From: TPA_inf: Saccharomyces
Lineage: Eukaryota
Assembly (NCBI GenBank): GCA_000146045.2
Contig: BK006942.2
Coordinates: 352,001-416,000, forward strand
Length of the DNA stretch: 64,000 nucleotides
Direction of reading: 5' to 3'
Made by a program: the position numbers and the translations under genes. Position 1 is the stretch's first letter. Each line of letters opens with the position of its first letter. The notes below the pieces were generated by a model. That model saw nothing but the letters and a program-made list of their open reading frames with translations, made no database searches and was not told where the DNA came from. Of this stretch, positions 3,629 to 64,000 are shown piece by piece.

Positions 3629-3746
3629 TTCACGTGAAAATTTTTATATTTTTAATTAAATTTTTATAATATTATAAATTATTATAATATTGATATTTAA
3701 AATTAAAAACAAATTATTAATGGTTTTGTTTTCCGAAATGTTTTTT
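3629..3746. other. CEN9: Point centromere CEN9: CDEI (TTCACGTG, 3629-3636), CDEII (~85 bp, >90% A+T, 3637-3721), CDEIII (TGGTTTTGTTTTCCGAAATGTTTTTT containing the invariant CCGAA core, ~3721-3746).
   Basis: Seen directly. RTCACRTG box, then an ~85 bp almost pure A/T stretch, then the TGTTT-TTCCGAA-A-rich CDEIII consensus. The tripartite architecture and spacing are diagnostic of budding-yeast point centromeres. It lies between YIL001W and SGN1 as expected. Confidence 0.9.
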
Positions 3747-8396: not shown

Positions 8397-8884
8397 CAGA
8401 GAGAAAAAAGGACACTAAAATAAAACAGAACCGGAATGTGTTGAATAAAACTGAAGTGAGCTACTATATCTTGAATCACAATATCTTAGCTCCGTGATAG
8501 AGCATAGGGCACCTCTATTGATCTCTTCGTGATGCCCGGTTATATACACACGTAACCCCGTAAAAGCCGTTACCCGGTTTATGTCTTTCTGTGAGCACAG
8601 TAAGCTAGGAAGGTCGATGGAGAAGAAGACTCCTGTCTCATATGGAACAACCTTGCAAATTGAGTGCAATTATCCCCTTTGGAGTTTGAATTTTGTGTTA
8701 GTACATTCTCCTTTTTTAACTTGTCTTTTCTACCACATGCACAATGAAAGCAATCTTGTTTTACCAGGCGCGAAGCAAAAGAAAAGGAGAAATATTGAGT
8801 ATATTTTAATTTAAGCTTTCTGATTTAGAAAGTATCATGTTTTGTTGGTGATCTAACAGGAAATCTATTTTGACCGATTATACA

Positions 8885-12519: not shown

Positions 12520-12888
12520 AGTTAGCAATCATCTCTTGTATATTAAAAATTCAAAAATTCACTTTTTTTTATTATCTGTATTCAATATAATATAATGTAT
12601 ATAAGATCACACTAATACTGATAATTCTATTCTTGAAAGAAAGACAATAGAACAATAAAGAAGTGATTGAACTCAGTGACAATGATAATTTATGTGATAA
12701 GGAAGTGGTTATGGCTGGAGAATTATGCCACACTTAAATGATAAGCTCTTTTACCTTTCTGGGTTTAGGAATTTTTTGAGATTAATACAGATAAAAAAAA
12801 ATAGGCCGAACATTAATTACTCATACAACTCAAAAAGTGCAGCGTGCAATTCTAGATCAAGAACATAGATAATATAAACAAAATAACA

Positions 12889-13335
12889 ATGAACAAAATT
12901 CAGCAAATCAACGATAAAGAACTACAAAGTGGAATTCTTAGCCCGCATCAATCATGGCATAATGAATATAAGGATAATGCTTATATATATATCGGAAATC
13001 TCAACCGAGAATTAACAGAAGGTGACATATTGACAGTCTTTTCTGAATATGGAGTCCCTGTAGATGTAATTCTTAGCAGGGATGAAAACACAGGAGAATC
13101 GCAAGGTTTTGCATATTTGAAATATGAGGATCAACGGTCAACGATTCTAGCAGTCGATAATTTAAATGGATTTAAAATTGGCGGTAGAGCCCTCAAAATT
13201 GATCATACTTTTTATAGGCCAAAAAGGAGTTTACAAAAATACTATGAAGCTGTAAAGGAAGAATTGGATCGAGATATAGTTTCGAAGAACAATGCTGAGA
13301 AACTCATTTTGGCTAAAAAGGACCAACCAAATTAA
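12889..13335 (+). CDS. IST3: U2 snRNP / RES-complex RRM protein Ist3 (Snu17), 148 aa.
   Basis: ORF 12889..13335. Single RRM (IYIGNL...QGFAYLKYED). Size and position match. Confidence 0.85.
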   Translation: MNKIQQINDKELQSGILSPHQSWHNEYKDNAYIYIGNLNRELTEGDILTVFSEYGVPVDVILSRDENTGESQGFAYLKYEDQRSTILAVDNLNGFKIGGRALKIDHTFYRPKRSLQKYYEAVKEELDRDIVSKNNAEKLILAKKDQPN

Positions 13336-18416: not shown

Positions 18417-18488
18417 TCCGATATAGTGTAACGGCTATCACATCACGCTTTCACCGTGGAGACCGGGGTTCGACTCCCCGTATCGGAG
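18417..18488 (+). tRNA. tE(UUC): tRNA-Glu, anticodon UUC, 72 nt, intronless.
   Basis: Sequence TCCGATATAGTGTAACGGCTATCACATCACGCTTTCACCGTGGAGACCGGGGTTCGACTCCCCGTATCGGAG matches yeast tRNA-Glu. It has a GTTCGACTCC T-arm (B box), an A-box-like GTGTAACGG, and a CTTTCAC anticodon loop. A T7 run at ~18503-18509 serves as the Pol III terminator. Confidence 0.93.
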
Positions 18489-40500: not shown

Positions 40501-41675
40501 GAAGAGCTTTCAGTGGTAGAGCTGGTTACTGGAGCAGAAGAGCTTTCAGTGGTAGAGCTGGTTACTGGAGCAGAAGAGCTTTCAGTAGTAGAGCTTGATG
40601 GGGTTGGTACTGGAGCAGAAGAGCTTTCAGTGGTAGAGCTGGTTACTGGAGCAGAAGAGCTTTCAGTAGTAGAGCTGGATGGAGTTGGTACTGGAGCAGA
40701 AGAACTTTCAGTAGTAGAGCTTGATGGGGTTGGTACTGGAGTAGTAGTCTTCTTAGTGCATGTCTTAGATGTGGTAGTTTTCTTCTTTGTACATGGAGTG
40801 GTGTCGTGATGAGGAGGTGTAGGCTTTTCCTTTGTGCATGAGGTAGTGGTTGGGGGTGTAGGCTTTTCCTTAGTGCATGAGGTAGTGGTTGGTGTAGCAG
40901 GAGCGGTGGTTGATGATGATGTAGATGACTCGGAAGTGCTAGATGTAGTGGTAGATGACTCGGAAGTGCTAGATGTAGTGGTAGATGACTCGGAAGTGCT
41001 AGATGTAGTGGTAGATGACTCGGAAGTGCTAGATGTAGTGGTAGATGACTTCGTACCGCCACAATTATTGTCACAATCTATGTTCCAATAGAAGCCTGGG
41101 AAATCCGTTTGAGAGTGGCCTTGATTGTCATAGTTGTTACAACCAGTAGACAAATCAAAAGATGTAGTTCCCCATTGCCAGGAGCTTGCATATTGAGCGG
41201 CACTACCTTGCAAATACTCGAATTGAATTTGGAAGTTAGGCATCCACACCTGACAGCTGTTGACATCTTGTGTGGCATAAACTTCAAAAGTGGCTGTGAA
41301 ATCAGTTGGGTTGTCAATCAAATAGGTATTTTCGTTGTAACCGTATAGTTGGACGGTACCTTTTGGACCAGTGACACCAATGATTTTCAAAGACCATAGA
41401 TACTTCAGGTCAATATTTTCTTTACCTTTGACATGAATAGTGATTTGGTATGTGTTGTCTTGAACCCAAGAAACGGAAGTCACATCCAAAGTATACTGCA
41501 TGATATTTTGCTGGTCCATGTGCCAATTGAAGTCTAAGTTGGGACAGCCATTAACGATAGAATTACAGCTAGTTCCTTCGGAGGATCCTCTTGGAACTAG
41601 TGCAGTTGGAAAACCCAAAGCCGAGTTAAATAGAAGCGAAAGGACCAAATAAGCGAGTAGAAATGGTCTTTGCAT
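37572..41675 (-). CDS. FLO11: GPI-anchored cell-surface flocculin/adhesin Flo11 (Muc1), 1367 aa: signal peptide, N-terminal Flo11 adhesion domain, very long Ser/Thr-rich tandem-repeat stalk, C-terminal GPI signal.
   Basis: ORF 37572..41675 minus strand. N-terminus MQRPFLLAYLVLSLLFNSALG. Central ~1.8 kb of near-perfect tandem repeats encodes SSTTESSSAPVPTPS-type units. Hydrophobic C-terminus (NFMWLLLALPVVF) preceded by small residues, consistent with a GPI omega site. Confidence 0.95.
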   Translation of the reverse strand: MQRPFLLAYLVLSLLFNSALGFPTALVPRGSSEGTSCNSIVNGCPNLDFNWHMDQQNIMQYTLDVTSVSWVQDNTYQITIHVKGKENIDLKYLWSLKIIGVTGPKGTVQLYGYNENTYLIDNPTDFTATFEVYATQDVNSCQVWMPNFQIQFEYLQGSAAQYASSWQWGTTSFDLSTGCNNYDNQGHSQTDFPGFYWNIDCDNNCGGTKSSTTTSSTSESSTTTSSTSESSTTTSSTSESSTTTSSTSESSTSSSTTAPATPTTTSCTKEKPTPPTTTSCTKEKPTPPHHDTTPCTKKKTTTSKTCTKKTTTPVPTPSSSTTESSSAPVPTPSSSTTESSSAPVTSSTTESSSAPVPTPSSSTTESSSAPVTSSTTESSSAPVTSSTTESSSAPVPTPSSSTTESSSAPVTSSTTESSSAPVTSSTTESSSAPVTSSTTESSSAPVTSSTTESSSAPVPTPSSSTTESSSAPVTSSTTESSSAPVPTPSSSTTESSSAPVTSSTTESSSAPVPTPSSSTTESSSAPAPTPSSSTTESSSAPVTSSTTESSSAPVPTPSSSTTESSSTPVTSSTTESSSAPVPTPSSSTTESSSAPVPTPSSSTTESSSAPAPTPSSSTTESSSAPVTSSTTESSSAPVPTPSSSTTESSSAPVPTPSSSTTESSSAPVPTPSSSTTESSSAPVTSSTTESSSAPVTSSTTESSSAPVPTPSSSTTESSSAPVPTPSSSTTESSSAPVPTPSSSTTESSSAPVTSSTTESSSAPVPTPSSSTTESSSAPVPTPSSSTTESSSAPVPTPSSSTTESSVAPVPTPSSSSNITSSAPSSTPFSSSTESSSVPVPTPSSSTTESSSAPVSSSTTESSVAPVPTPSSSSNITSSAPSSIPFSSTTESFSTGTTVTPSSSKYPGSQTETSVSSTTETTIVPTKTTTSVTTPSTTTITTTVCSTGTNSAGETTSGCSPKTVTTTVPTTTTTSVTTSSTTTITTTVCSTGTNSAGETTSGCSPKTITTTVPCSTSPSETASESTTTSPTTPVTTVVSTTVVTTEYSTSTKPGGEITTTFVTKNIPTTYLTTIAPTPSVTTVTNFTPTTITTTVCSTGTNSAGETTSGCSPKTVTTTVPCSTGTGEYTTEATTLVTTAVTTTVVTTESSTGTNSAGKTTTGYTTKSVPTTYVTTLAPSAPVTPATNAVPTTITTTECSAATNAAGETTSVCSAKTIVSSASAGENTAPSATTPVTTAIPTTVITTESSVGTNSAGETTTGYTTKSIPTTYITTLIPGSNGAKNYETVATATNPISIKTTSQLATTASASSVAPVVTSPSLTGPLQSASGSAVATYSVPSISSTYQGAANIKVLGNFMWLLLALPVVF
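38950..40760. repeat. Coding minisatellite inside FLO11: dozens of head-to-tail copies of ~30- and ~45-nt units (…gcagaagagctttcagtagtagagctggatggagttggtactgga… on the + strand). Flanking shorter arrays sit at 40895-41050 (30 nt x4, coding SSTSESSTTT) and 38630-38900.
   Basis: Direct reading. The same 30-45 nt motif recurs almost perfectly across ~1.8 kb. This generates the long artefactual antisense ORF 38965..40809 in the track. Confidence 0.95.
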
Positions 41676-47776: not shown

Positions 47777-50689
47777 ATGGACCCTCACCAATCACCAGCT
47801 GATAATGCCGCATCGCCTACGAAGAGCGTGAAGGCAACCACTAAAAATTCGTCCACGAATAATAATGTCAATAGCAACAACAGCAATAATAACAGTAACC
47901 ATGATATACTGAATTTTAATGATAACTATACTACCATTCTGCAACATTTGGCAAACGACCATCCTAATATACTGAGGGAGAAAGGAGGATCACAACAACA
48001 ACAGCATCAGCAGCAGCAACAACAGCAACAACAGCAGCAACAACAGCAGCAACAACAGAGCCTGGATACCCTTTTGCACCATTATCAAAGTTTACTCTCC
48101 AAGAGTGATAATGCAATAGCCTTTGATGACAATGTTAGTAACAGCGCAGATCATAATGGCAGTAATAGCAACAATAATAACAACAATAATGACATATCTA
48201 GTCCCGGTAATCTGATGGGATCTTGCAATCAATGTAGATTAAAGAAAACAAAGTGCAACTATTTTCCCGACCTAGGCAACTGTCTCGAATGTGAAACGTC
48301 AAGAACTAAATGCACCTTCAGTATTGCTCCAAATTATTTGAAAAGAACGTCCTCTGGGGCAAACAATAACATGCCAACCTCTTCAAACTCCAAACGAATG
48401 AAAAATTTTGAAGACTATTCGAATCGCTTACCCAGTAGCATGCTCTATAGACATCAACAGCAGCAGCAACAGCAACAGCAGCAACAGCGTATACAATACC
48501 CCAGATCCTCTTTTTTCGTCGGTCCGGCCTCAGTTTTCGATTTGAACTTGACCAAGCATGTAAGACTAGATAATGTTGACCAAATACAGCTATCAAAAAC
48601 TTTATCATTAAGAAAGGTGTCTCCTACCGCACAGTTTATTCTTCAGGACGATTTTGACACGACCCTTCATAGTAAGCAAGAATACGAAGTTGATTTGGTC
48701 GAAAATCTGGTACATCCGCACGGTCACCTTTTAGTAGAGATTTTCTTCAAATTGATTCATCCTTTTCTTCCAATTTTACACGAACGTGTATTTTTGGAAA
48801 AGTATTCTAGATCTTATAGAGAACTCACTGCGCCTTTACTGGCATCCATTTACTCACTGGCATTACAATATTGGGATTTTCATCCTGCACTTTTGGGGTT
48901 CCCTAAACCCGATGTAACTGCTCAACTAAACAATATCGCATTGGAAACATTTTATGCTCGAGTTGGAAGGCCAAAATTGAGCATTATACAAACAGGCCTT
49001 TTGATTTTGCAATGCCGTAGTGAATGTCATAACAACTGGGTCCTCTGCTCCAGCGTAGTGGCCCTTGCAGAGGAATTGGGGCTCGGGGTTGAATGTAATG
49101 ATTGGAAACTTCCCAAATGGGAAAAAGATTTGAGAAAGAGATTAGCGTGGGCAGTTTGGTTGATGGATAAATGGTGTGCATTAAACGAAGGTAGACAATC
49201 CCATTTAATTTTAGGTAGGAACTGGATGATCAAGCTATTAAACTTTGATGATTTTCCTCTGAATTCGCCCACTATTTTAAATTCCTTGCAAAATGACCAG
49301 TCGGGGTCTTCACCCTCGTCATCAAATGATGTGAAAAACCATCAGATAGCATTTGGTAACTTGCCCATATTTAACATAAACCCCACTTTAGAAGATTTCA
49401 AGAATGGAACGCTTATGTTTCAACAAATGGTTTCCTTGAGTATAATTCTTGGGGAAATCATGGACACATTTTACACTCAGGGATCCATGACAATAAACAA
49501 AAGCATTGAACAGGTATTGAAACTGGCAAAGCCGTTGCAACTGAAATTAAGAGAATGGTACCATTCCCTACCCAAGAATTTGTCAATGAGTTATGCCACG
49601 CCACAAAAATTGAACTCAAATTCAACTTTAACTCTAGCTTATTTTGCCACGGAAATTACGTTACATAGGAAAATTATCTGTGCCTTGAATCCTCAAACTC
49701 CAAAGGAACTGGTTCAAGTATGCAGGACTGCTGCAAGAACCAGGCTTGTAGCAGCAATTGAATTTATAAGAGATCTAAAAAACGAACATATTAATGCTTT
49801 TTGGTATAACTGCTCAACTGGAAATCTGATGCTAATTGGAACATTTGCTGCCCTGCTGTATGTGACTTCAGCTACGAAGGAAGAGGCTATGATTTTCAGA
49901 GATTATGTTAGAAATTATACCTGGGTATTGAAGATAGGTTCCAAATACTTTGATAAACTATCGAATGCTTTGAATAATATGCATTTACTATTTGCACAAA
50001 TTCCTGGTCTTCTGACCGATGAACCGGTGGTCGTGAGCCCTAACTCTAACATCAATTCCGTTAACCCACAAAGGTCAGGTGTACAATCGCAAATCCCAAT
50101 ACAATTTAACGTGGGATCACCTGCCATGACCGAGCAAGGATCTCCTTTAAACCAGTGGAAGAATTTGCCCCAGGAAATCTTGCAACAACTAAACTCCTTT
50201 CCCAACGGTACGACCAGTACAACAACGCCAGTAAACCCCACTTCCAGACAAACACAACTAGAATCGCAGGGAAGTCCAGCCATAAATAGTGCTAATAATA
50301 ATAGCAACAACACGCCTTTACCATTTGCGCCAAATAAGTCTTCTAAAAAAACTTCACAATCTTCACCAAATGTTACGCCCTCTCATATGAGCAGACACCC
50401 CCCCTCTAATACATCTTCACCAAGAGTCAATTCCAGCACAAATGTCAACTCTAATACACAAATGAATGCTTCTCCCTTGACCTCAATTAACGAAACCAGA
50501 CAAGAGTCAGGTGACGCTGCAGATGAAAAAACAGCAGGAAGAGAAAGAACCGCCAACGAGGAATCATCAACGGAACTCAAGGACGATAATCCAAACTCGA
50601 ACCAGGAAACAAGCGCAACTGGTAACCAAACTATAAAAATGAATGATGATAAAAATGTAACAATTAACACAAGGGAAACCCCTCTGTAA
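47777..50689 (+). CDS. DAL81: Zn(II)2Cys6 transcription factor Dal81/Uga35 (general co-inducer for allantoin, GABA, urea and amino-acid (SPS) responsive genes), ~970 aa from Met at 47777 (track ORF begins at 47729).
   Basis: ORF 47729..50689. Gal4-type zinc cluster (CNQCRLKKTKCNYFPDLGNCLECETSRTKC), two poly-Gln tracts, and a fungal transcription-factor middle homology region. Confidence 0.9.
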   Translation: MDPHQSPADNAASPTKSVKATTKNSSTNNNVNSNNSNNNSNHDILNFNDNYTTILQHLANDHPNILREKGGSQQQQHQQQQQQQQQQQQQQQQQSLDTLLHHYQSLLSKSDNAIAFDDNVSNSADHNGSNSNNNNNNNDISSPGNLMGSCNQCRLKKTKCNYFPDLGNCLECETSRTKCTFSIAPNYLKRTSSGANNNMPTSSNSKRMKNFEDYSNRLPSSMLYRHQQQQQQQQQQQRIQYPRSSFFVGPASVFDLNLTKHVRLDNVDQIQLSKTLSLRKVSPTAQFILQDDFDTTLHSKQEYEVDLVENLVHPHGHLLVEIFFKLIHPFLPILHERVFLEKYSRSYRELTAPLLASIYSLALQYWDFHPALLGFPKPDVTAQLNNIALETFYARVGRPKLSIIQTGLLILQCRSECHNNWVLCSSVVALAEELGLGVECNDWKLPKWEKDLRKRLAWAVWLMDKWCALNEGRQSHLILGRNWMIKLLNFDDFPLNSPTILNSLQNDQSGSSPSSSNDVKNHQIAFGNLPIFNINPTLEDFKNGTLMFQQMVSLSIILGEIMDTFYTQGSMTINKSIEQVLKLAKPLQLKLREWYHSLPKNLSMSYATPQKLNSNSTLTLAYFATEITLHRKIICALNPQTPKELVQVCRTAARTRLVAAIEFIRDLKNEHINAFWYNCSTGNLMLIGTFAALLYVTSATKEEAMIFRDYVRNYTWVLKIGSKYFDKLSNALNNMHLLFAQIPGLLTDEPVVVSPNSNINSVNPQRSGVQSQIPIQFNVGSPAMTEQGSPLNQWKNLPQEILQQLNSFPNGTTSTTTPVNPTSRQTQLESQGSPAINSANNNSNNTPLPFAPNKSSKKTSQSSPNVTPSHMSRHPPSNTSSPRVNSSTNVNSNTQMNASPLTSINETRQESGDAADEKTAGRERTANEESSTELKDDNPNSNQETSATGNQTIKMNDDKNVTINTRETPL

Positions 50690-52872: not shown

Positions 52873-53967
52873 TTATCTATTTACTTTCTCGGATTCAAAA
52901 TTAACCATGTTGGGCAAAGCAGTGGATTGTAAGGGAAATTGATCCACTTTACTAGTTTGCAGGTGGATAGCGGGGATGACCCACTTACCACAACTGCACC
53001 TAGATCCTTTCCAGTTGTAACCGCCAACTTTACTTGAACAGCCTGGACATGAAAACTTCCCTTCTAACTCTTGCTTGCCTTGTAGTTCAGGTTGCATCCA
53101 TTTTAAAGGTTCGATGAAAAAATGAGAGCAATTTGCTTGTGACTCTTGAATATCAATAATACGATGGGAGTTGGCGGCCCTCTTGATGAAGTGTCCCTCT
53201 GATGATTCCTTACTTGGTGGGTCATGCGCGATGAAAGATGTAGATAACGCCAATTTGGTTCTGCACTTCTTACATCTCACTGCGGTGACCTTGCTCTTCT
53301 CAGCTTCAGTTAATTTATCCAAGTCTTGCGACGACTCCGAATCTTTAAACATTCCAGAATTGGAGACCAATTCGCTGCCCGATGGATCTAACTTGATAGA
53401 TTGCTTCAGCTTCCACTGCTTATAGGCTGGGTTGTCGAAATCGACAAAATCTCCACCCATTTTCTCAAAGAGATGTAATTGTTCCATGAAATTCTCGTTT
53501 GGCTCAACACTCGGTTTCTTCCTCTTGACAGCGTGCATAGCCATTGATAGTGACAATCCATAACGATACATTAGGTAGGCTACTATGAAGGTTACAGATC
53601 TCGAGAGTCCTGCTTGACAATGAGCAAAAACAGCACCACGTTGTGGTTTCTTCTTGAAATCTACTAATCTGGGCGAATACTCAACTTCATTGGGGAACAA
53701 GCATTGATCAATGAATCGGTTCGTTTCATCGAAGTATTGCAGCACATCAGTCACATCATCATCATCGATGGGTATGTTTTTTAGCGTGTAACCTTTCCTT
53801 ATTAGATACTCTGGAATGACCTGGAATTTGATAACAGAAAGAATATGAGTAATGTTAAATTCTGCACCCAATGGTCTGTGGTCAATAATTGGACGGATTC
53901 CGCCAAGATATATGCCTCCTAATATCCTGGTAACTTCCTCGTCTACTGAGTTTGCATTTCCAGCCAT
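52873..53967 (-). CDS. YVH1: Dual-specificity protein phosphatase Yvh1 (ribosome 60S maturation, Mrt4 release), 364 aa.
   Basis: ORF 52873..53967 minus strand. DSP active site (HCQAGLSRS) in the N-terminal half, and a C-terminal Cys/His-rich zinc-binding domain (CKKCRTKL...CPGCSSK...CSCGKW). Confidence 0.9.
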   Translation of the reverse strand: MAGNANSVDEEVTRILGGIYLGGIRPIIDHRPLGAEFNITHILSVIKFQVIPEYLIRKGYTLKNIPIDDDDVTDVLQYFDETNRFIDQCLFPNEVEYSPRLVDFKKKPQRGAVFAHCQAGLSRSVTFIVAYLMYRYGLSLSMAMHAVKRKKPSVEPNENFMEQLHLFEKMGGDFVDFDNPAYKQWKLKQSIKLDPSGSELVSNSGMFKDSESSQDLDKLTEAEKSKVTAVRCKKCRTKLALSTSFIAHDPPSKESSEGHFIKRAANSHRIIDIQESQANCSHFFIEPLKWMQPELQGKQELEGKFSCPGCSSKVGGYNWKGSRCSCGKWVIPAIHLQTSKVDQFPLQSTALPNMVNFESEKVNR

Positions 53968-54259: not shown

Positions 54260-55642
54260 TTAACGTCTAGAATCAAGCAAAGTTTGACCCAATGGTGTTT
54301 TCGAGACTCCGTTGGCATTCGTATATACCACCTGGCCTCTTAATATGGTTTTCAAAACTGTGCCCTTGACCGTCATCCCGTTGTAGGCAGTCAATTTGTT
54401 TTTGAAGTAGACACTTGAATTACTTATTTTATGTTTACTTGCAGTATCAAATACCACCAAATCAGCATCGTACCCGGGAGCTATAGTGCCTTTTTGGTGA
54501 GATAGTCCTACCTGATGGGATGTATTTTTACAGCACCATGTAACGATATCGACCAAAGAGCAGCCTTGGGTAAACATCAATGGCAAACCTAGTCCGACGG
54601 AAGCGATTCCTCCCCAAGAATCGAAAAAGTCACCTTTTTGCAAGTTCTTCAACTCAGGGGTGCATGGCGAATGGTCGCTCACTACTGAGCCTATAACACC
54701 TTCACGCAAAGCGTCCCATAGGCCTTGGCGATTAGACTCAGAGCGGATGGGTGGACAACATTTAAAGTAGGTGGCTCCGTCTGGGATCTGCTCTGCAGCA
54801 ATACACAAATAGTGGAAACAAGTCTCTGTTGTGACTGGTAGCCCTGACGCACGTGCCTTTCTGATCAAGGGAATTGCTTTCATTGATGCCAGATGAACTA
54901 TATGTACAGGAGGAACTGGTCCATTTCTGGCTCTCAAGCATTCGAGAATCAAATTGATGGCGTCTATTTCGAAAGAATCCGGCCTCGAGGACAAAAACGA
55001 AGAATATTCACGATGGCTTTGCTCGGGTTGCTGTTGGTCCTCATGTGCCTTGGGCAACTCAGCATGAAACATCATCATGGTATCCTCCTCGGCTAAGACC
55101 TTCAAGGCTTCTTCTATATATTCTTTGCCAATTGGAGGGAATTCTTCCACACCAGAATCAAGCAAGAATCCTTTGAACCCGCGAACGCCAGCTTTGACAA
55201 GCGGAATTAAGTCTGGCAAGTTGTGTGGTACCAGTCCACCCCAAAACCCAACATCGCACCACATTTGGCCCTCAGCAGCTTCCAATTTAATTCGGAAATT
55301 CTCCACATTTGTTGTGGGAGGAATAGCATTTAGCGGCATATCAACCACCGTTGTGACCCCGCCACTAATAGCAGCTTGAGTTCCAGTTTCGAATCCTTCC
55401 CAGCTAGTCCTACCGGGCTCGTTCAAGTGAACATGAGAGTCCACAAGTCCAGGCAGAATTGTACATGGAGATACGTTCTCCAGCGTATGTATTTCATATT
55501 TGGTTATCTCAGTTTTCTCCATAACCACGGAGCCTTCTAAAACATCCAGAATCGTGCCTGATTCGGTCGAATACACAATAGTCGCAGGTTTATTTGCACC
55601 ATTGATAATGACATGGTCGGAAGTGATGGCATTGATAGGCAT
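54260..55642 (-). CDS. DAL1: Allantoinase (cyclic amidohydrolase superfamily), 460 aa.
   Basis: ORF 54260..55642 minus strand. Metal-binding H-x-H (VDSHVHLNEPGRTSWEG), carbamylated-Lys region, and the rest of the amidohydrolase fold. Part of the DAL cluster. Confidence 0.92.
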   Translation of the reverse strand: MPINAITSDHVIINGANKPATIVYSTESGTILDVLEGSVVMEKTEITKYEIHTLENVSPCTILPGLVDSHVHLNEPGRTSWEGFETGTQAAISGGVTTVVDMPLNAIPPTTNVENFRIKLEAAEGQMWCDVGFWGGLVPHNLPDLIPLVKAGVRGFKGFLLDSGVEEFPPIGKEYIEEALKVLAEEDTMMMFHAELPKAHEDQQQPEQSHREYSSFLSSRPDSFEIDAINLILECLRARNGPVPPVHIVHLASMKAIPLIRKARASGLPVTTETCFHYLCIAAEQIPDGATYFKCCPPIRSESNRQGLWDALREGVIGSVVSDHSPCTPELKNLQKGDFFDSWGGIASVGLGLPLMFTQGCSLVDIVTWCCKNTSHQVGLSHQKGTIAPGYDADLVVFDTASKHKISNSSVYFKNKLTAYNGMTVKGTVLKTILRGQVVYTNANGVSKTPLGQTLLDSRR

Positions 55643-55843
55643 CTTTGTTCTTCGCAGTATTTCACTTTTTTTTTGCCTATACGTTTTTGCGAAATATACA
55701 CTTTTCTAACCTAATTAAAGATAGCTAAAAGAAAAAGGGGTACCTTCAATTACAAGATACCAGTAGAAACTCATCACTTTTGCGTTACCTCATCATTGTC
55801 CCCTTCGATGAGATATGCCTCCTCTATATAGATAATTAAGCAC

Positions 55844-56221
55844 CGCAATTTTGAACCACTTCTCCTGATAAAGTTCCATCAGTCCACCATCAACACATTT
55901 GCGCCTATTCGATGATCCGCAGTAAGGGACAATAGAATCGAAACATGCAGTTCCTTTCTTTCCTGCAATTCTCGGGTCTAATGTGGCTCGAGGGTATCTC
56001 TTATCGGTATTACTTTCTTATCAATGAAAAATTTCTGCCAGGGAAAATGCGCCCGCTTTTTTTCCGGCCATCCTTACTCGCTGTCGCATACAAAATAGCG
56101 CCTCTAATCTAGTTGCGATAAGGAATGTGTATGTGTAATTGAAGATCCAGGATGTTTTCCTTTTCAGGGAGATGAGAAGGAATAATAGGATGGATTGACC
56201 GCTTTGCTGTCACGTCGATAA
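55844..56221. promoter_or_regulatory. DAL1-DAL4 divergent promoter: GATAAG motifs (CTTATC 56000-56005 and 56017-56022; GATAAG ~56116-56121 and ~56216-56221) and a UIS(ALL)-like AAAATTGCGG element (reverse-complement around 55844-55853).
   Basis: Direct motif reading in the 825-bp region shared by the two divergent genes. Confidence 0.6.
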
Positions 56222-56467
56222 GGTTCCTTTAAAAATTGTGTCCAATGATTAGCATAGAGAGGTAGAGTATCAGAGAAACAAGTTTGTAATCGAGAAACTT
56301 GATCTGCTAGTGTTGAGCATAGAAGGCTAGGAAAACATGGGGAAGAAAAAAAAAGTATAAATAATTAGCTTGATGAGTAGTTTGAATATATATGTTACTT
56401 TAGTTTCCCTTTTTGACCTTTTATATTCATCTACATCTTGTGATATAAAACATCAACAAAGACGAGA

Positions 56468-58375
56468 ATGGCTAACGACGCTCTAAGTGCTATTTTCAGT
56501 AATCCTTCGAGGAAAGGTGTCCAACCCTCCACATCTATTGTGTCATATACAAACAATGAAGATGATATTATAGATGTGGAAAATGGGAAGTTCAACAAGA
56601 ACAAGAATATCAACACTAATGTGTATGTGGACAACTCCTCAATAGAGGAGAGCGAAGTCGTGCCCTTGCCCGAAACAAAGTCCATCTGGAGTAAAATATA
56701 CTACGATTTCATTGTGTTAGACAAGACAACTTTGAATGTTTCGTTGAAAGAGTCGTTCTTGTATAACAGAGACTTGAAACCGGTTGAAGAAGAAAGAAGG
56801 TGTTGGTCCTGGTTCAATTACTTATATTTCTGGCTGGCAGACTGTTTCAATATTAACACATGGCAAATAGCTGGTACAGGTCTACAACTAGGTCTGAATT
56901 GGTGGCAATGTTGGCTTACAGTTTGGATCGGCTACACTTTTGCAGGTATCTTCGTAGTATTGAACTCGAGATTTGGTTCCGCATATCACTTATCTTTCCC
57001 TATTACTGTTAGGGCCTCATTTGGTATATTCTTTTCTATGTGGCCGATTATAAATCGTGTCGTGATGGCTATAGTATGGTATGCCGTGCAAGCCTGGTTA
57101 GGTGCAACGCCCGTGGCACTGATGCTAAAATCTATTTTTGGCAAGAATCTGGAAGATAGAATCCCAAACCATTTTGGTTCTCCAAATAGCACTACTTTTG
57201 AATTCATGTGTTTCTTTATATTTTGGGTGGTCAGTATACCATTTGTCCTAGTGGCTCCTCATAAAATCAGGCATTTATTCACAGTAAAAGCAGCTTTGAT
57301 CCCCTTCGCAGCCTTTGGATTTTTAATCTGGGCTTTGAAGAAATCGCACGGTAAAATTGAGTTGGGGACGCTGAATGATTATTCACCTCATGGTTCCGAA
57401 TTTTCATGGATATTCGTTAGATCCCTAATGGCCTGTGTTGCTAACTTTGCCGCTTTGATTATCAACGCCCCTGACTTCGGTAGATTTGCCAAAAATCCTC
57501 AAGCGTCTTTGTGGCCACAATTGGTTGCCATCCCATTGTTCTTCGCCATAACATGTTTGATCGGTATCATTGTTACTGCGGCCGGTTATCACTTATATGG
57601 GGTTAACTATTGGTCACCACTGGATGTACTTGGTCAATTTTTGGAGACCACTTACACCAGAGGTACTAGGGCTGGTGTGTTCTTGATTTCTTTTGTATTT
57701 GCCTTAGCTCAACTGGGTACAAACATTTCTGCCAACTCTCTGGCATGTGGTGCTGATATGACGGCTTTGTTTCCAAGATATATTAATATTAGAAGAGGTT
57801 CTTTATTCTGTGTGGCAATGGCTCTATGTATCTGTCCATGGAACTTAATGGCCAGTTCAAGTAAGTTCACCAGCGCTTTGGGTGCTTATGCAATTTTCCT
57901 TTCCAGTATTGCTGGTGTCATTTGCGCGGATTATTTCGTAGTAAGAAGAGGATATGTGAAATTAACACATTTATTCCTGGCACAGAAGGGTTCCTTTTAC
58001 ATGTTTGGAAACAAATTTGGTGCCAATTGGAGGGCCTTTGTTGCGTATATTTGCGGTATCGCTCCAAATTTACCAGGTTTTATAGGTGATGTTGGAGCTC
58101 CAAAAATTACGGTTTCAGAGGGTGCAATGAGGTTATACTATTTAGGTTATCCGGTAGGTTTCTTTATTAGTGCGGTGATATACCTCATATTATGTTACTT
58201 TTTTCCTGTCCCTGGTACTCCCGTAACCAATTTTCTGACAGAGAAAGGATGGTTCCAAAGATGGGCTTATGTTGAGGACTTCGAGCAAGATTGGAAGAAT
58301 GAGTTACGTAGGGATGACCTCTGCGATGACACAGTCAGTATCTATGATGGCACCGAGGAAAAGATAGTTTACTAA
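56468..58375 (+). CDS. DAL4: Allantoin permease (NCS1 nucleobase:cation symporter family), 635 aa, ~12 TM helices.
   Basis: ORF 56468..58375. Multiple hydrophobic helices. Strong similarity to the Fur4/Dal4 NCS1 signature (e.g. NRDLKPVEEERRCWSWFNY). Diverges from DAL1. Confidence 0.92.
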   Translation: MANDALSAIFSNPSRKGVQPSTSIVSYTNNEDDIIDVENGKFNKNKNINTNVYVDNSSIEESEVVPLPETKSIWSKIYYDFIVLDKTTLNVSLKESFLYNRDLKPVEEERRCWSWFNYLYFWLADCFNINTWQIAGTGLQLGLNWWQCWLTVWIGYTFAGIFVVLNSRFGSAYHLSFPITVRASFGIFFSMWPIINRVVMAIVWYAVQAWLGATPVALMLKSIFGKNLEDRIPNHFGSPNSTTFEFMCFFIFWVVSIPFVLVAPHKIRHLFTVKAALIPFAAFGFLIWALKKSHGKIELGTLNDYSPHGSEFSWIFVRSLMACVANFAALIINAPDFGRFAKNPQASLWPQLVAIPLFFAITCLIGIIVTAAGYHLYGVNYWSPLDVLGQFLETTYTRGTRAGVFLISFVFALAQLGTNISANSLACGADMTALFPRYINIRRGSLFCVAMALCICPWNLMASSSKFTSALGAYAIFLSSIAGVICADYFVVRRGYVKLTHLFLAQKGSFYMFGNKFGANWRAFVAYICGIAPNLPGFIGDVGAPKITVSEGAMRLYYLGYPVGFFISAVIYLILCYFFPVPGTPVTNFLTEKGWFQRWAYVEDFEQDWKNELRRDDLCDDTVSIYDGTEEKIVY

Positions 58376-58591
58376 ATAAAAATCCCAATTTATTCTCTTA
58401 CCAGTAGTGATCAGGAGAATTGATAATTTCTTCAAAACACCTTAATATTCGTTCTGTGTATTTTTATGTACCTTTCTTAATCAAATTTATCAGCTTCATA
58501 CATGCATTCCCGTCTGAATAATGTACTGATGATTAGCTAAACCGTCATCAACCTACCAAACTTGCGCTTGTTTGAGCCTATCAGAACTCCG

Positions 58592-58633
58592 GATAATTCC
58601 GACATCTTATCTTTGACTCGAATTAGCGATAAG
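58592..58633. promoter_or_regulatory. DAL2 promoter GATA elements (GATAA 58592-58596, CTTATC 58606-58611, GATAAG 58628-58633).
   Basis: Direct motif reading ~180-215 bp upstream of the DAL2 ATG. Confidence 0.55.
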
Positions 58634-58806
58634 ATAAAAACACAGGAACCACAATGAAATTCAGCTGGAAGAAAAGTCTAAATTATAGACACATTTTCTG
58701 AGATCAAATGCTATAAAGGAATGGAAGTGCATTTTGCTATGATATGGGGAAATTATGAAGCCGATCAAACAATTAATTGTATCTAATCGGTCTCTTCTTT
58801 AGAAAA

Positions 58807-59838
58807 ATGAAGTTTTTTAGTTTGGCAGATGAGGCAGAATTTAAGTCAATAATCATTTCAAAAAACAAAGCAGTAGATGTTATAGGATCTAAGTTAGGTG
58901 GTCAAGTGGTTTCTTTTTCAGATGAATGGTTTGCTTCTGCTGAAAATTTAATTCAGCCAACTGCTCCTATAAGGGATCCTACCAGATTTGTTCATTCAGG
59001 CGCATGGTACGACGGCTGGGAAACACGAAGACATAATGAGATGGAATACGATTGGGTTATCATCAAGATGGGAGTCGCTGCTGCCCATATTATTGGTGGT
59101 GAAATTGACACTGCGTTTTTCAATGGTAATCATGCACCATTTGTATCAATAGAGGCGCTCTATGACGAGGGCGAAGAAGGTAATATAGTGGAAGATGACT
59201 CGCGTTGGGTTGAGATTGTTGAGAAATTTGAGTGTGGTCCTTCGCAAAGGCATCTTTTCGTTAGAGGCAACGGCCTTACTAAAGAAAGGTTTACTCACAT
59301 CAAGCTGAAGATGTACCCCGATGGAGGAATCGCCAGATTTAGATTATACGGAAGAGTTGTTCCTCCAGAACTCAAAACGAAGGATCATATAATTGACTTG
59401 GCTTATGTTTGCAATGGTGCTGTCGCTTTAAAGTATTCTGACCAACACTTCGGTTCAGTTGATAATTTGCTACTGCCAGGTCGAGGTCATGATATGTCGG
59501 ACGGCTGGGAAACCAAAAGATCGAGACAACCAGGTCATACTGATTGGGCGGTAATTCAACTGGGCAGGGAGTCTTCTTTCATTGAGAAGATTATTGTTGA
59601 TACGGCACACTTCAGGGGGAACTTCCCTCAGTTCATTACCGTGGAAGGTTGCTTGAAGGAGTCAGAATCAAGTGAGAACACTGGTGAAGGAACATGGGTA
59701 GAGCTAGTTGGTAAGTCAAAGACGGGGCCTGACAAAGAACATGTGTATGAAATACGTAAGAGTATAAGAGTCTCCCATGTCAAATTAACGATTATTCCAG
59801 ATGGAGGAGTGAAAAGAATAAGAGTTTGGGGGTACTGA
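58807..59838 (+). CDS. DAL2: Allantoicase (two tandem allantoicase repeats), ~343 aa from Met at 58807 (track ORF begins at 58777).
   Basis: ORF 58777..59838. Internal duplication visible (SDEWFASAENL...GWETRR and MSDGWETKR...). Allantoicase family. Confidence 0.88.
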   Translation: MKFFSLADEAEFKSIIISKNKAVDVIGSKLGGQVVSFSDEWFASAENLIQPTAPIRDPTRFVHSGAWYDGWETRRHNEMEYDWVIIKMGVAAAHIIGGEIDTAFFNGNHAPFVSIEALYDEGEEGNIVEDDSRWVEIVEKFECGPSQRHLFVRGNGLTKERFTHIKLKMYPDGGIARFRLYGRVVPPELKTKDHIIDLAYVCNGAVALKYSDQHFGSVDNLLLPGRGHDMSDGWETKRSRQPGHTDWAVIQLGRESSFIEKIIVDTAHFRGNFPQFITVEGCLKESESSENTGEGTWVELVGKSKTGPDKEHVYEIRKSIRVSHVKLTIIPDGGVKRIRVWGY

Positions 59839-60035
59839 TAAATACTTAACTACTGTATATTTTAAACCAATGCACTCTTGGCACTTTAAAAGTAAAGGTA
59901 TAAATGTAGTTAAAAGTTTTTGTTTTGATAATTGAATGTTTTCATTTCGCTATCCCCACGCTACTTTATTTACTTCTTCTTCTTCACGACAAAACATTAA
60001 AATTTACACTCTATAAAAAACAATCATATTTCTAT

Positions 60036-60770
60036 TTATTTTTGTGAGTTGACAAATCTTATCATAGTGATTAGAATCTGTAAACCGATCTCAATCGTGT
60101 CCAGAAACAGCGTGCCATCCCTTTGGAATGTTTTCGCCAGTTTATTTTGCAAACCCGAGAATCCTGCACAACCTAATATTACAATGTCTGAATCAAGCTT
60201 TTTAATATTTTCGCGATATATAATTTCTGCTATCTGCTGGAAATTTTCTGGACTATGTAGGTCGAGGACCTGTAAATCAGTAGATACCGTACCTTTCCAT
60301 AAATTTTTGTTAACTGTATTCCCTGTCAAGAATTTCGATTCCACAGAGTTATTCAATATTGGAATCCATTCTTTATTTGAAGTAATAATAGAGAACTTCT
60401 TTCCAACCAAATTGCAATAATTAATACTACTATCTAATAACCCAACAATAGAAACATCTGCTTTTTCTTTAGCAGCTCTATCCTTTATCTTTGCTACCAA
60501 AGGATGATCTGAAAAACAGGCAATTAATATCCCGTTGAATTTCTGAAAGTAATATACCGACTCCTGGTCATCAATTAAGAGGGGAAGACAGGCCTCCATA
60601 CTTTTAATACTTGTTTCCTGCCCATCAATTTGTGGTGGCGACGTGTCTGGCCCTGTGAAATAACTGATTTTACATGATTCCATTGAAAAAGTCTTTTCAA
60701 TGGTTTCCCGCAAGGACACCGTCATTGACTTCGAACTATTAGGATTCACAACAAGTATTCTTGTTTCCAT
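60036..60770 (-). CDS. DCG1: Dal80-controlled gene 1: Asp/Glu/hydantoin-racemase-like protein, 244 aa, substrate unknown.
   Basis: ORF 60036..60770 minus strand, sitting inside the DAL cluster. Two putative racemase catalytic Cys regions (ILIACFSDHP and ILGCAGFSG). Confidence 0.85.
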   Translation of the reverse strand: METRILVVNPNSSKSMTVSLRETIEKTFSMESCKISYFTGPDTSPPQIDGQETSIKSMEACLPLLIDDQESVYYFQKFNGILIACFSDHPLVAKIKDRAAKEKADVSIVGLLDSSINYCNLVGKKFSIITSNKEWIPILNNSVESKFLTGNTVNKNLWKGTVSTDLQVLDLHSPENFQQIAEIIYRENIKKLDSDIVILGCAGFSGLQNKLAKTFQRDGTLFLDTIEIGLQILITMIRFVNSQK

Positions 60771-60918
60771 CGTTCGATAATTTGCTTAGCTAGTTTTTCT
60801 TTGTTCTTTTGATTTTCCTGAGGTAAGAATTAGTAATTCAGTTTCCTTACATATTCTCGCTTCAAAGGCTTAAATATGATCTGGCATGGAGAAAAAATAT
60901 GAGTTCAATTTGTCATAC

Positions 60919-60934
60919 CTTATCAGGCCTTATC
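60919..60934. promoter_or_regulatory. DCG1 promoter: two tandem CTTATC (GATAAG) sites 10 bp apart (60919-60924 and 60929-60934), ~150 bp upstream of the DCG1 ATG.
   Basis: Direct motif reading. DCG1 was named for its control by the GATA repressor Dal80. Confidence 0.6.
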
Positions 60935-61014
60935 AGCTCAAATTTGATTGGATTATGCGTTAAAACAGCGCCTAAAATTCTTCGAATATTCGTCAGGTTA
61001 TGTACGTATACATT

Positions 61015-62679
61015 CTATAATTTACTTAAGTCAACTGGTTTGGCACTTGGCTTAATAATTTCATCATACAATAAAGTGGTCAAGAAGTCGCTAAAGATTT
61101 TACCAGTGACTTCAGGCAAAAAATACTTGGCTGCCAAGGCAAACTTGTTCTTTTCACCCAGCGGACTTGCTGAAGCCAATTTTGCAGTCTCTTCATTTAA
61201 TATCTTAGCGGTCAATTCTGGAGTTACTTTGTCACCGGTATCACTTAAGACAACACCATGTTTAACCCACTGGTACAATTGACAACGTGATACTTCCGCA
61301 GTAGCGGCATCTTCCATCAAATGATTAATTGGGACACAACCAGATCCCCTTAACCAAGCCTCCATATATTGTAGGCCAATATCCAAGTTTACTCTGATTC
61401 CCTCAGTAGTGACTTGAGCATCTTGAATCTTCGTATTCAATAAATCAGATGATGTAACATGTACATCCGGGACAAAATATATTTGATTTGCTGTACCCAT
61501 GTTACTGAAAACTTCATTACAAATCGGTGCCAATGCTGGGTGTGCTACCCATGACCCATCATGCCCATTCTTCATTTCTCTAATTTTGTCATTACGAACT
61601 TTGTTCATTGCAGCTTCATTAGCCTTTGGATCATCTTTTATGGGGATTTGGGCAGCCATACCACCCATCGCATGGACCCCTCTACGGTGACATGTATTGA
61701 TCAATCTTTTCACATAAGCATCCATAAAAGGTGAAGTCATAGTCACTAGATCCCTATTTGGCAAAACGTGTTCAGGCAAGTTTCTCAGTTTTTTAATGGT
61801 CGAAAATATGTAGTCCCAACGACCACAGTTCAAACCGCTTGAATGTTCTCTTATTTGATAGATAATCTCCTCCATTTGGAAGGCCGCTGGCAAAGTTTCA
61901 ATCAGAACAGTGGCCCTAATGGTACCGCGGGGCATTCCAATAAAATCTTGTGCAACACAGAATATGTCATTCCATAGTTTTACCTCCATATGGTGCTCCA
62001 TCTTTGGTAAGTAAAAATAAGGTCCTTTACCAATTTTAACTAACTCTTTAGCGTTATGGTAAAAATATAAACCAAAATCGAAGATGGAAGCACTAATCGG
62101 TTCATCATCTATGTAAAGGTGCTTCTCCACCATGTGCCAGCCACGAGGTCTGACAATTAAAGTGGGCAGTCTTGAAATGTCATCCTTCAACCTGTACTCC
62201 TTTCTTGGTGTCTTGAAATCGATTTGATTTCTAATGGCATCATAAAGATTAACTTGTCCGTAAATCATGTTCTCCCAAGTTGGAGATGAAGAGTCCTCGA
62301 AATCAGTCATATATGTCGTTACTTCAGCATTCAAAGCGTTGACTAACATATTTCTCAATGGTGGCCCAGTAATCTCGCTGGATCTGTTGATCAAACCAGG
62401 GGCTGGGATAGCACCTTGCCATGTAGGATCGTTCCTGATTTGTTCGGTTTCCGGCAAGAAATCAAATCGGTATTCACCAGAGTCTAACTTTGATTGTAAA
62501 TTGCTTCTGTTGGCTAAAAGCTGTTTCCGTGTTGAATTGAAAGTTCTATGCAGCAAAACAATGAACTCTAAGGCATCTTTTGTTAAAATATCAGCTACAG
62601 TAGTTTTGGAAGGTTCAAATTGAGGAGTCGTGTCGATGTCTGCGTATAGAGCAGTGTTGTCCAAGCTTATCTTCACCAT
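61015..62679 (-). CDS. DAL7: Malate synthase (glyoxylate-consuming; allantoin-pathway isozyme), 554 aa.
   Basis: ORF 61015..62679 minus strand. Malate synthase family signatures throughout. Carries a C-terminal SKL peroxisomal targeting signal. Confidence 0.93.
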
Positions 62680-62840
62680 TGTTCAGTGCTCTTTACCGTG
62701 CCTATGACACATACTCTAAGTGATATCAACTGCACAGAAAGTGAAGAATTAAGACTACATGCGTAAATGTCCCCATTTTATACTTATTGCTTCACCAATT
62801 GACGAAACTATCCAATCTTTGTGATACTTTCACGATGTAC

Positions 62841-62907
62841 CTTATCCAAGATAAGCCAAAACTTATGAAATTCAATTTATGTGATAAGAAAAGCAAACGC
62901 AATTTTC
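62841..62907. promoter_or_regulatory. DAL7 upstream control region: inverted pair of GATAAG sites (CTTATC 62841-62846, GATAAG 62850-62855), a further GATAAG at ~62884-62889, and the allantoin-pathway upstream induction sequence UIS(ALL) GAAAATTGCGTT (reverse-complement at 62896-62907).
   Basis: Motifs read directly. GATAAG is the UAS-NTR bound by Gln3/Gat1/Dal80/Gzf3. The dodecanucleotide GAAAATTGCGTT is the published Dal82-dependent UIS of DAL7. Confidence 0.75.
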
Positions 62908-63029
62908 CAAAATCCGCGGTATTCTATCGCACCGCAACTTTCAGCGGAGATTTTATGTCGATAATCGTAAACCTATGAAATTACTAATACATGAACATTT
63001 ACATATTTACTTCGCCCACAGTCGCAGAA

Positions 63030-63617
63030 TTAGATGATAATACAAACGTCGCCATCGCTGTAGTGTTCTTCCACACAGTCCTTCTCGGGCCTGTCAGGGT
63101 CCAGACTTTCGTAGATTAAGACTGAAAAATCCAAATGTTCTTCCTTGCCAAGTACTATCATGGGCGCATGCCAGGTACCTAAGCCATAGGTAACGGCCTG
63201 ATTACCCAAACATGTAAAAGCCCTCAACGTAGACAAGTCTGGCTTATTTCCAATTTCTTTAGCGACTACTACCAAGTATGCTACTTCCGCTGACGTTCTC
63301 CCCATAGGCACAAACGTCTGCGTACTACACGGATGCTTTTCGAGGACTTTGATAGAATGAGAAATCGCCTGATTGGAGCCTTGAGTGAATACTCTATTCA
63401 GGTGCGGCTGTGGAAAGCAACGGAATAGGTTCCAATTGGGAACTTTACTGGTAGATTTATTCTCTACCTGGCTTACTTGAAGCAATTTGATCGCTGTTCC
63501 CTGGTTTGCACCTTTTTCAAGGTTTTGCATCCTTGAAATCTCTTCATCTGGCGAAATTATCGTCCCATACTCCTCGAAGGACTCTTTCGTCAATGTCTCC
63601 GCCACCACGGTCACCAT
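63030..63617 (-). CDS. DAL3: Ureidoglycolate lyase (ureidoglycolate hydrolase family, cupin fold), 195 aa.
   Basis: ORF 63030..63617 minus strand. Size and position at the distal end of the DAL cluster. A cluster of GATAAG motifs lies upstream. Confidence 0.88.
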   Translation of the reverse strand: MVTVVAETLTKESFEEYGTIISPDEEISRMQNLEKGANQGTAIKLLQVSQVENKSTSKVPNWNLFRCFPQPHLNRVFTQGSNQAISHSIKVLEKHPCSTQTFVPMGRTSAEVAYLVVVAKEIGNKPDLSTLRAFTCLGNQAVTYGLGTWHAPMIVLGKEEHLDFSVLIYESLDPDRPEKDCVEEHYSDGDVCIII

Positions 63618-63648
63618 ATCTTTGCTTCAAAGATTTTTTGCCCTACAA

Positions 63649-63784
63649 GATAAGCATCAAGAGCGATTGGATGACAGTTACTGACTTATATATGCGAATG
63701 CACATGAATAGACCGCATATGCTTCTTATCAGTCTTACCTCGCTTATCTTTCCCCATTTATTTGCCAATCCATCTTATCTTATC
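63649..63784. promoter_or_regulatory. DAL3 promoter: at least five GATAAG motifs (GATAAG 63649-63654; CTTATC 63725-63730, 63743-63748, 63774-63779 and 63779-63784 overlapping).
   Basis: Direct motif count. Far denser than expected by chance in 140 bp. Consistent with nitrogen-catabolite-repression control. Confidence 0.7.
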
Positions 63785-64000
63785 TGGCACTTTGTCTCAG
63801 GGTTAGTGTTACAAAAAGGCTAGGACTTATTTCCAAAATTCTACTTTTGAAAATAACCCTAACAATAAAAGCAAGGGCATTCTGATGTTACCCTAGAAAT
63901 GTCGTATTTCTTTTTATATCGTGGATCATGACAAAAAACTCAACATTTTCAAATGGGTGAGCTCTAAACCAGAAAATACAGCCGCCGAAAGCCTTTTAAA

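Follow-up and report, generated by a model that had tools for sequence, protein, structure and literature searches.

The DAL gene cluster of Saccharomyces cerevisiae chromosome IX: six adjacent allantoin-catabolism genes, the motifs their promoters share, and their assembly by relocation

We analysed a stretch of Saccharomyces DNA of 64,000 nucleotides (GenBank assembly GCA_000146045.2, contig BK006942.2, positions 352,001 to 416,000 of the forward strand), referred to here as the window, which carries genes for the use of allantoin as a nitrogen source. Six uninterrupted open reading frames (ORFs), DAL1, DAL4, DAL2, DCG1, DAL7 and DAL3, lie there side by side (Table 1) and span 9,358 bp (54260-63617), in agreement with the figure of about 9.4 kb given in an original prediction that had been made from the letters of the sequence alone. 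That prediction named the six frames as the DAL enzymes and allowed that a search might show them to be something else. An exact-sequence look-up revealed that all six translations are identical, residue for residue, to proteins of S. cerevisiae S288C, for which the sources give the names allantoinase, allantoin permease, allantoicase, Dcg1p, malate synthase DAL7 and ureidoglycolate lyase. In keeping with the original prediction, the locus is almost certainly the DAL metabolic gene cluster, here that on chromosome IX of S. cerevisiae, in which six contiguous genes, each with its own promoter, serve the use of allantoin as a nitrogen source. It is the same, without any difference in locus, order, orientation or flanks, as the published cluster YIR027C-YIR032C (Wong and Wolfe 2005 as summarised in PMC4629796, PMC2776167, PMC3419248).

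The family assignments were made with Pfam, where the scores of all six products lay far above the curated cut-offs, and with NCBIfam. Dal1 belongs to Amidohydro_1 (E = 6e-47) and matches the allantoinase equivalog TIGR03178 with 481.7 bits against a cut-off of 357.85, while Dal4 is a member of the cytosine/purine/allantoin permease family Transp_cyt_pur (E = 3e-178) and of the NCS1 subfamily TIGR00800 (629 bits, cut-off 353). Dal2 contains two Allantoicase repeats, scores 434.7 bits with the equivalog TIGR02961 (cut-off 277.9), and is matched over its full length by the solved yeast allantoicase chains 1sg3 and 1o59 (E = 1e-239). The domains MS_N, MS_TIM-barrel and MS_C were found in Dal7, together with a match of 877 bits to the malate synthase A equivalog TIGR01344 (cut-off 594.5). 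Dal3 is recognised by Ureidogly_lyase (154 bits, cut-off 23), and its matches to the bacterial NCBIfam ureidoglycolate lyase models fall below the cut-offs of those models. Finally, Dcg1 belongs to Asp_Glu_race (PF01177), with 105.6 bits against a cut-off of 31. It should be noted that DAL2 is counted here from the ATG at 58807; the mechanical list of ORFs starts the gene at an upstream TTG at 58777.

The genes had been described as sitting head-to-head and tail-to-tail, which holds for one pair of each kind (DAL1/DAL4 and DAL2/DCG1, respectively), but the remaining three junctions, DAL4>DAL2, DCG1<DAL7 and DAL7<DAL3, are tandem. All further ORFs of at least 100 amino acids (aa) within the span are on the opposite strand and overlap the six genes, so the cluster is contiguous. 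Two of these ORFs of 100-127 aa, at 60899-61282 (+), overlapping DAL7 and the DCG1 promoter, and at 55077-55379 (+), overlapping DAL1, are probably spurious. Antisense transcripts have been reported for DAL1, DAL4 and DCG1 (PMC3419248). On one side the cluster is flanked by YVH1 (DSPc domain, 52873-53967). The window ends 383 bp past the DAL3 ATG, inside the DAL3 promoter as had been stated, and the sequence beyond was read from an S. cerevisiae assembly with an identical Dal3. The suggestion that more DAL-related genes might lie just outside the window was not borne out, as none is present within 10 kb beyond DAL3 in that assembly. This region instead contains an MGA2-type factor, which forms the other flank of the cluster, an alanine-dehydrogenase-family gene that is presumably LYS1, two short-chain dehydrogenases, a glutathione peroxidase and a glutathione transferase.

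Table 1. Genes, intergenic regions and Dal82-type elements of the DAL locus (positions within the window)
Feature	Coordinates	Strand	Length	Details
DAL1, allantoinase	54260-55642	-	460 aa	exact S288C match; Pfam; NCBIfam
DAL4, allantoin permease, NCS1 family	56468-58375	+	635 aa	exact S288C match; Pfam; NCBIfam
DAL2, allantoicase	58807-59838	+	343 aa	exact S288C match; Pfam; NCBIfam; solved structures
DCG1, Asp/Glu/hydantoin-racemase-family protein, probable allantoin racemase	60036-60770	-	244 aa	exact S288C match; Pfam
DAL7, malate synthase	61015-62679	-	554 aa	exact S288C match; Pfam; NCBIfam
DAL3, ureidoglycolate lyase	63030-63617	-	195 aa	exact S288C match; Pfam
DAL1/DAL4 divergent promoter region	55643-56467		825 bp	4 GATAAG: 56000(-), 56017(-), 56117(+), 56217(+)
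DAL2 promoter	58376-58806	+	431 bp	2 GATAAG: 58606(-), 58628(+)
DAL2-DCG1 convergent 3' spacer	59839-60035		197 bp	0 GATAAG; no promoter
DCG1 promoter	60771-61014	-	244 bp	2 GATAAG: 60919(-), 60929(-)
DAL7 promoter	62680-63029	-	350 bp	3 GATAAG: 62841(-), 62850(+), 62883(+)
DAL3 promoter, truncated by window end	63618-64000	-	383 bp	5 GATAAG: 63649(+), 63725(-), 63743(-), 63774(-), 63779(-)
UIS(ALL)-type dodecamer GAAAATTGCGTT	62896-62907	-		217-228 bp upstream of DAL7 ATG; sole exact match in window
Second UIS-like element GAAAGTTGCGGT, DAL7 promoter	62931-62942	-		two mismatches to dodecamer; matches AAANWTGYG
Dal82-type AAAATTGCG, DAL1/DAL4 spacer	55844	-
Dal82-type AAAATTGTG, DAL1/DAL4 spacer	56232	+
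Dal82-type AAACTTGCG, DAL2 promoter	58558	+
DAL81, Zn(2)Cys(6) co-activator	47777-50689	+		Pfam Zn_clus, Fungal_trans; orthologues named DAL81 by sources

The promoters of the cluster are rich in GATAAG, the UAS-NTR motif through which Gln3 and Gat1 activate and Dal80 represses transcription (PMC3419248, PMC4589623, PMC2776167). A comparison of the GATAAG count with a shuffled-sequence null had been proposed together with the original prediction and was carried out here. The five promoter-bearing spacers (2,233 bp) contain 16 sites, while 1.55 ± 1.23 were expected from 5,000 first-order Markov shuffles of the same spacers, in which the count never exceeded 9. The expectation for individual spacers was 0.61 for DAL1/DAL4, 0.19 for DCG1, 0.18 for DAL7 and 0.25 for DAL3. 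The density in the DAL promoter spacers is 7.2 sites per kb, whereas the other 19 kb of non-coding sequence in the window have 0.47 per kb, an approximately 15-fold difference (Poisson P ~4e-14). Three sites were found in the 7.3 kb of DAL coding sequence, and across the whole 64-kb window the motif is not enriched (42 sites versus 35.3 expected). Hence, the GATAAG enrichment within the window is confined to the DAL promoters. The claim that every intergenic region of the cluster carries GATAAG is accurate for all five promoter-bearing spacers, with 2-5 sites each, but not for the 197-bp convergent spacer between DAL2 and DCG1, which has none.

We next to this count examined the conservation of the sites by aligning the spacers with their counterparts from S. 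uvarum and S. arboricola, where 34-49% of all columns are invariant. Nine of the 16 GATAAG sites are invariant in all three Saccharomyces species. They comprise all four sites of the DAL1/DAL4 spacer together with those at 58628 (DAL2), 60919 (DCG1), 62883 (DAL7), and 63649 and 63779 (DAL3); at the DAL7 sites 62841 and 62850, five of the six columns are kept.

The second type of motif concerns induction. Dal82 binds the dodecanucleotide UIS(ALL), and induction also requires Dal81 (PMC4589623, PMC3419248); the specificity of Dal82 has been reported as AAaNwTgyG (PMC1435934). In line with the original prediction of such an element upstream of DAL7, one exact copy of the dodecamer GAAAATTGCGTT was found in the DAL7 promoter, and this copy fits the Dal82 specificity. 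A scan with AAANWTGYG yielded five matches in the DAL promoters versus 0.58 expected, two of them in the DAL1/DAL4 spacer, one in the DAL2 promoter and two in the DAL7 promoter. The core CGCAATTTTC of the dodecamer is unchanged in S. uvarum and differs at one position in S. arboricola. Conservation is higher for the other DAL7 element, GAAAGTTGCGGT, which lies 35 bp upstream of this canonical copy and is invariant in all three species, within an invariant block of about 20 columns. Collectively, these data revealed six adjacent monocistronic genes of one pathway whose promoters share enriched and conserved GATA and Dal82-type motifs.

To place the cluster among other yeasts, genomic contexts were fetched via Dal2 homologues for the cluster itself and via Yvh1 homologues for the insertion site. 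All six ORFs of S. cerevisiae recur in S. uvarum and S. arboricola, with order, orientation and flanks unchanged. The clusters of Naumovozyma castellii and Kazachstania naganishii (Huiozyma) resemble that of S. cerevisiae in that the same six families are contiguous within about 10 kb, and each differs from it in its own way. In N. castellii the order is DAL2(+), DAL4(-), DAL1(+), DCG1(-), DAL7(-), DAL3(-), so that the first three genes replace the DAL1(-), DAL4(+), DAL2(+) of S. cerevisiae. The neighbours are different, and the cluster locus ends less than 1 kb from the end of a 959-kb chromosome record. The observed order is consistent with published inversions (PMC3419248). A small Flo11-domain gene lies 1.6 kb from the N. 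castellii cluster (7734-8399 of the fetched locus). The MFS genes flanking this cluster were considered as DAL5 orthologues and are probably not, as they share 24-27% identity with the MFS gene of the K. naganishii cluster. The latter gene (544 aa, 11417-13051 (-) of the fetched locus), published as DAL5/KNAG0D03140 (PMC4629796), sits between DAL2 and DAL3 and makes the K. naganishii cluster one of seven genes, located at an internal, non-orthologous site.

Besides the six genes, DAL81 had been reported to lie only about 3.5 kb upstream, and indeed 3,570 bp were measured from its end to DAL1, with three unrelated genes between (a 216-aa ORF, an Apc15p-domain gene and the dual-specificity phosphatase). 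This nearness might be taken as a lineage-specific benefit, the Saccharomyces cluster site, two or three genes from DAL81, having been retained for advantageous linkage or a shared chromatin domain, which we regard as very unlikely. Very unlikely too, in our view, is that DAL81 counts as a seventh gene of the cluster with a regulatory role, which selection moved to or maintained at a place beside its targets. The short distance and the conservation of the arrangement in S. uvarum and S. arboricola speak for membership; however, the linkage of DAL81 to YVH1 is ancestral. In Torulaspora globosa, which lacks the whole-genome duplication (non-WGD), DAL81 and YVH1 share a chromosome at a distance of 14.7 kb and eight genes, and DAL81 adjoins a 229-aa gene without Pfam domains, a placement similar to that of the 216-aa ORF next to S. 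cerevisiae DAL81. As judged by locus tags, DAL81 and YVH1 are 4-9 genes apart in Eremothecium, Kazachstania africana, Vanderwaltozyma polyspora, Tetrapisispora phaffii and K. naganishii; in Lachancea they lie near each other on a single chromosome. DAL genes are reported to be missing altogether from K. africana, V. polyspora and T. phaffii (PMC4629796). Moreover, the clusters of N. castellii (on HE576755, with DAL81 on HE576754) and K. naganishii (on chromosome D, with DAL81 on chromosome M) are unlinked to DAL81, and the protein is not specific to this pathway, as it also serves the γ-aminobutyric acid (GABA), urea, leucine and amino-acid (SPS) sensor pathways (PMC4589623).

Because the DAL81-YVH1 linkage is ancestral and the clusters of N. 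castellii and K. naganishii are unlinked to DAL81, this gene, which is linked to the cluster by function, is not part of the clustering. DAL81 did not relocate and its position relative to YVH1 is ancestral; its nearness to DAL1 is best read as inherited synteny that was compacted in Saccharomyces and not as a conserved property of DAL clusters. The original prediction was right about the distance. The genes that intervene in the non-WGD YVH1-DAL81 order are absent from this S. cerevisiae chromosome, and we infer that they were removed by post-duplication gene loss. The non-WGD order around YVH1 and DAL81 includes genes for ATP synthase subunit d, an Npa1/URB1-type protein, an HCS1-type helicase and ARPC4, all absent here. 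We presume that these four genes are located on S. cerevisiae chromosome XI, interleaved as in a sister region of the whole-genome duplication. In T. globosa and Eremothecium cymbalariae, YVH1 also has a Zn-cluster gene at a distance of about 6 kb, but this was rejected as the DAL81 orthologue; the similarity is at the domain level only, and the true T. globosa DAL81 lies farther along the same chromosome.

Clusters occur in several genera, which alone could suggest an old origin, and the adjacency of the DAL genes would then be ancestral synteny, the genes having always been neighbours, or chance. The non-WGD yeasts make this extremely unlikely. In T. globosa and Zygosaccharomyces rouxii, DAL2 stands alone in a common block of unrelated genes (a methyltransferase, a zinc-finger gene, Dus, Cupin_5 and peptidase M28), with no other DAL gene within 10 kb on either side. 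The MGA2-YVH1 site, which in S. cerevisiae encloses exactly the six DAL genes, consists in T. globosa, Z. rouxii and E. cymbalariae of an MGA2-type gene, one PPTA-repeat gene, YVH1 and MND2, and no DAL gene was found there in any of these three species of three genera. Published surveys describe the DAL genes as scattered in all non-WGD species (PMC4629796), and the idea of an ancestral neighbourhood is largely refuted. The dispersal of the orthologues in yeasts that predate the duplication, a check put forward with the original prediction, was in this way confirmed for DAL2, together with a DAL-free insertion site.

According to the literature, the cluster was assembled after the whole-genome duplication, and DAL4 arose by duplication of FUR4 and DAL7 by duplication of MLS1 (PMC4629796, PMC2776167). 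The relocation history reproduced here independently is supported and agrees with the published accounts (PMC4629796, PMC2776167, PMC3419248). One detail of the original prediction needs to be reworded. Assembly by relocation stands, but it had been placed after the switch from urate oxidase-dependent degradation, and the reviews state that the cluster formed at the time when urate oxidase was lost and import switched from urate to allantoin, not that it demonstrably formed afterwards (PMC4629796, PMC2776167, PMC3419248). Lastly, there is virtually no chance that the block is a bacterial allantoin-utilisation operon gained by horizontal transfer, for although the enzymes match bacterial NCBIfam models (allantoinase, allantoicase, malate synthase A and ureidoglycolate lyase), the closest relatives of Dal2, the one protein whose match list was examined, are yeast proteins of 56-86% identity from Saccharomycetaceae and beyond, the genes lie on both strands with their own spacers bearing yeast GATA-factor sites, their G+C content (0.35-0.47) is not distinct from that of the flanks, and DAL4 and DAL7 derive from the yeast genes named above.

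None of our results speaks against the preferred reading, that of a co-regulated pathway cluster assembled by relocation, and several points set limits to it. Our direct test of dispersal in non-WGD yeasts consists of DAL2 and the DAL-free site, and the evidence for the other five genes comes from the literature. The literal dodecamer GAAAATTGCGTT is attributed here to the work of the Cooper laboratory, and the documented form of the motif is the degenerate Dal82 specificity (PMC1435934). The AAANWTGYG scan gave no match in the DCG1 promoter or in the DAL3 promoter as far as the window end. Because these two promoters carry GATAAG without AAANWTGYG, inducer control is perhaps not uniform across the six genes; alternatively, the pattern suggests that diverged sites may be used in the DCG1 and DAL3 promoters. 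The last points concern Dcg1, which matches the solved bacterial allantoin racemases weakly (3qvj, E = 6e-6; 5lfd, E = 1.5e-5) and gave no match in an NCBIfam search.

With matches at this level (E ~1e-5), the racemase activity of Dcg1 is putative. The cysteine motifs iACFsDhp and lGCaGfs of Dcg1 align with IACFGDPGL and LGCGGMA of 3qvj and would provide the putative catalytic cysteines, within an overall match that is weak. The protein has been called 'a probable allantoin racemase' (PMC11869459), and it may be a true allantoin racemase, as already proposed. The original prediction counted DCG1 among the allantoin-catabolism genes; its identity is exact and it is a member of the cluster, but its part in allantoin catabolism is one that we infer from its family and location.

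The pathway that the cluster serves is established (PMC3419248, PMC2776167). Allantoin enters the cell through Dal4, its ring is opened by the allantoinase Dal1 to give allantoate, and the allantoicase Dal2 converts this to urea and ureidoglycolate. The ureidoglycolate lyase Dal3 then yields a second urea together with glyoxylate, a toxic product that the malate synthase Dal7 condenses with acetyl-CoA and thereby removes. The urea is handled elsewhere by Dur1,2, the intermediate allophanate acting as the inducer of the pathway (PMC3419248, PMC2776167). Dcg1, as the probable allantoin racemase, would supply the isomer required by allantoinase. The six genes are reported to be co-expressed on allantoin or under nitrogen limitation (PMC3419248, PMC11869459). 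Co-regulation would be achieved through shared cis-elements and not as an operon, each gene being monocistronic with its own promoter. Following the literature, Gln3 and Gat1 would activate through the GATAAG sites under nitrogen limitation, with the repressors Dal80 and Gzf3 binding the same sites, and the Dal82-type UIS(ALL) elements in the DAL1/DAL4, DAL2 and DAL7 promoters would confer, through Dal82 and Dal81, induction by allophanate or oxalurate. The arrangement itself very probably arose when ancestrally dispersed genes were gathered between YVH1 and MGA2 after the whole-genome duplication.

Other regulatory features have been described for these spacers. Sum1 binds the DAL1-DAL4 spacer (PMC2776167), in which we found no match to the Sum1/MSE pattern DSYGWCAYWDW and one Ndt80-type GNCRCAAAW at 55897, a motif that occurs seven times in the whole window. 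An autonomously replicating sequence (ARS) has been placed in the DAL2-DCG1 spacer (PMC3419248), where a simple scan for the ARS consensus gave no 11/11 match and only two 10/11 matches, at 59991 and 60028. The cluster is also reported to lie in an Htz1-activated domain (PMC3419248, PMC4589623, PMC2776167).

Farther from the cluster, the window contains a point-centromere-like element at 3629-3745, between two ORFs, composed of a CDEI-type TCACGTG at approximately 3631, about 75 bp of nearly pure A+T and a CDEIII-type TGTTTTCCGAAA ending at approximately 3739. A strict CDEI-CDEIII regular expression missed this element, which was found by reading the sequence; it is consistent with the window spanning the centromere of the chromosome. 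The only tRNA gene detected by ARAGORN in the window encodes tRNA-Glu (anticodon UUC, 18417-18488 (+)). A FLO11-type adhesin gene at 37572-41675 (-), about 12.6 kb from DAL1, comprises a 1,367-aa ORF with an N-terminal Flo11 domain (240 bits) and a degenerate tandem-repeat array of 1.6 kb (39104-40741, periods 45, 81 and 126).

Among comparable systems, the GAL1-GAL10-GAL7 cluster of yeasts likewise consists of non-homologous genes of one pathway with their own promoters, co-regulated through upstream elements that they share (PMC3419248, PMC4629796). It differs in comprising three genes of another pathway with other regulators, and its syntenic site is conserved across Saccharomycetaceae, while the DAL genes came together after the whole-genome duplication (PMC4629796). 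Bacterial allantoin-utilisation operons share with the DAL cluster an allantoinase, an allantoicase, a ureidoglycolate lyase, an NCS1 allantoin permease and a protein of the Asp/Glu/hydantoin-racemase family. Unlike the genes of these operons, those of yeast are monocistronic and distributed over both strands, and they answer to GATA factors and to Dal82 and Dal81.

The genes, regulation and evolutionary history of the DAL cluster have all been published, and our analysis adds no new biology. What it contributes are refinements concerning the orientation of the genes, the convergent spacer devoid of GATAAG, the lack of more DAL genes past DAL3 and the inherited synteny of DAL81. It also shows that a genuine co-functional cluster and its regulatory motifs can be recovered from raw sequence. 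The DAL cluster is the standard example of a eukaryotic metabolic gene cluster built by relocating dispersed genes.

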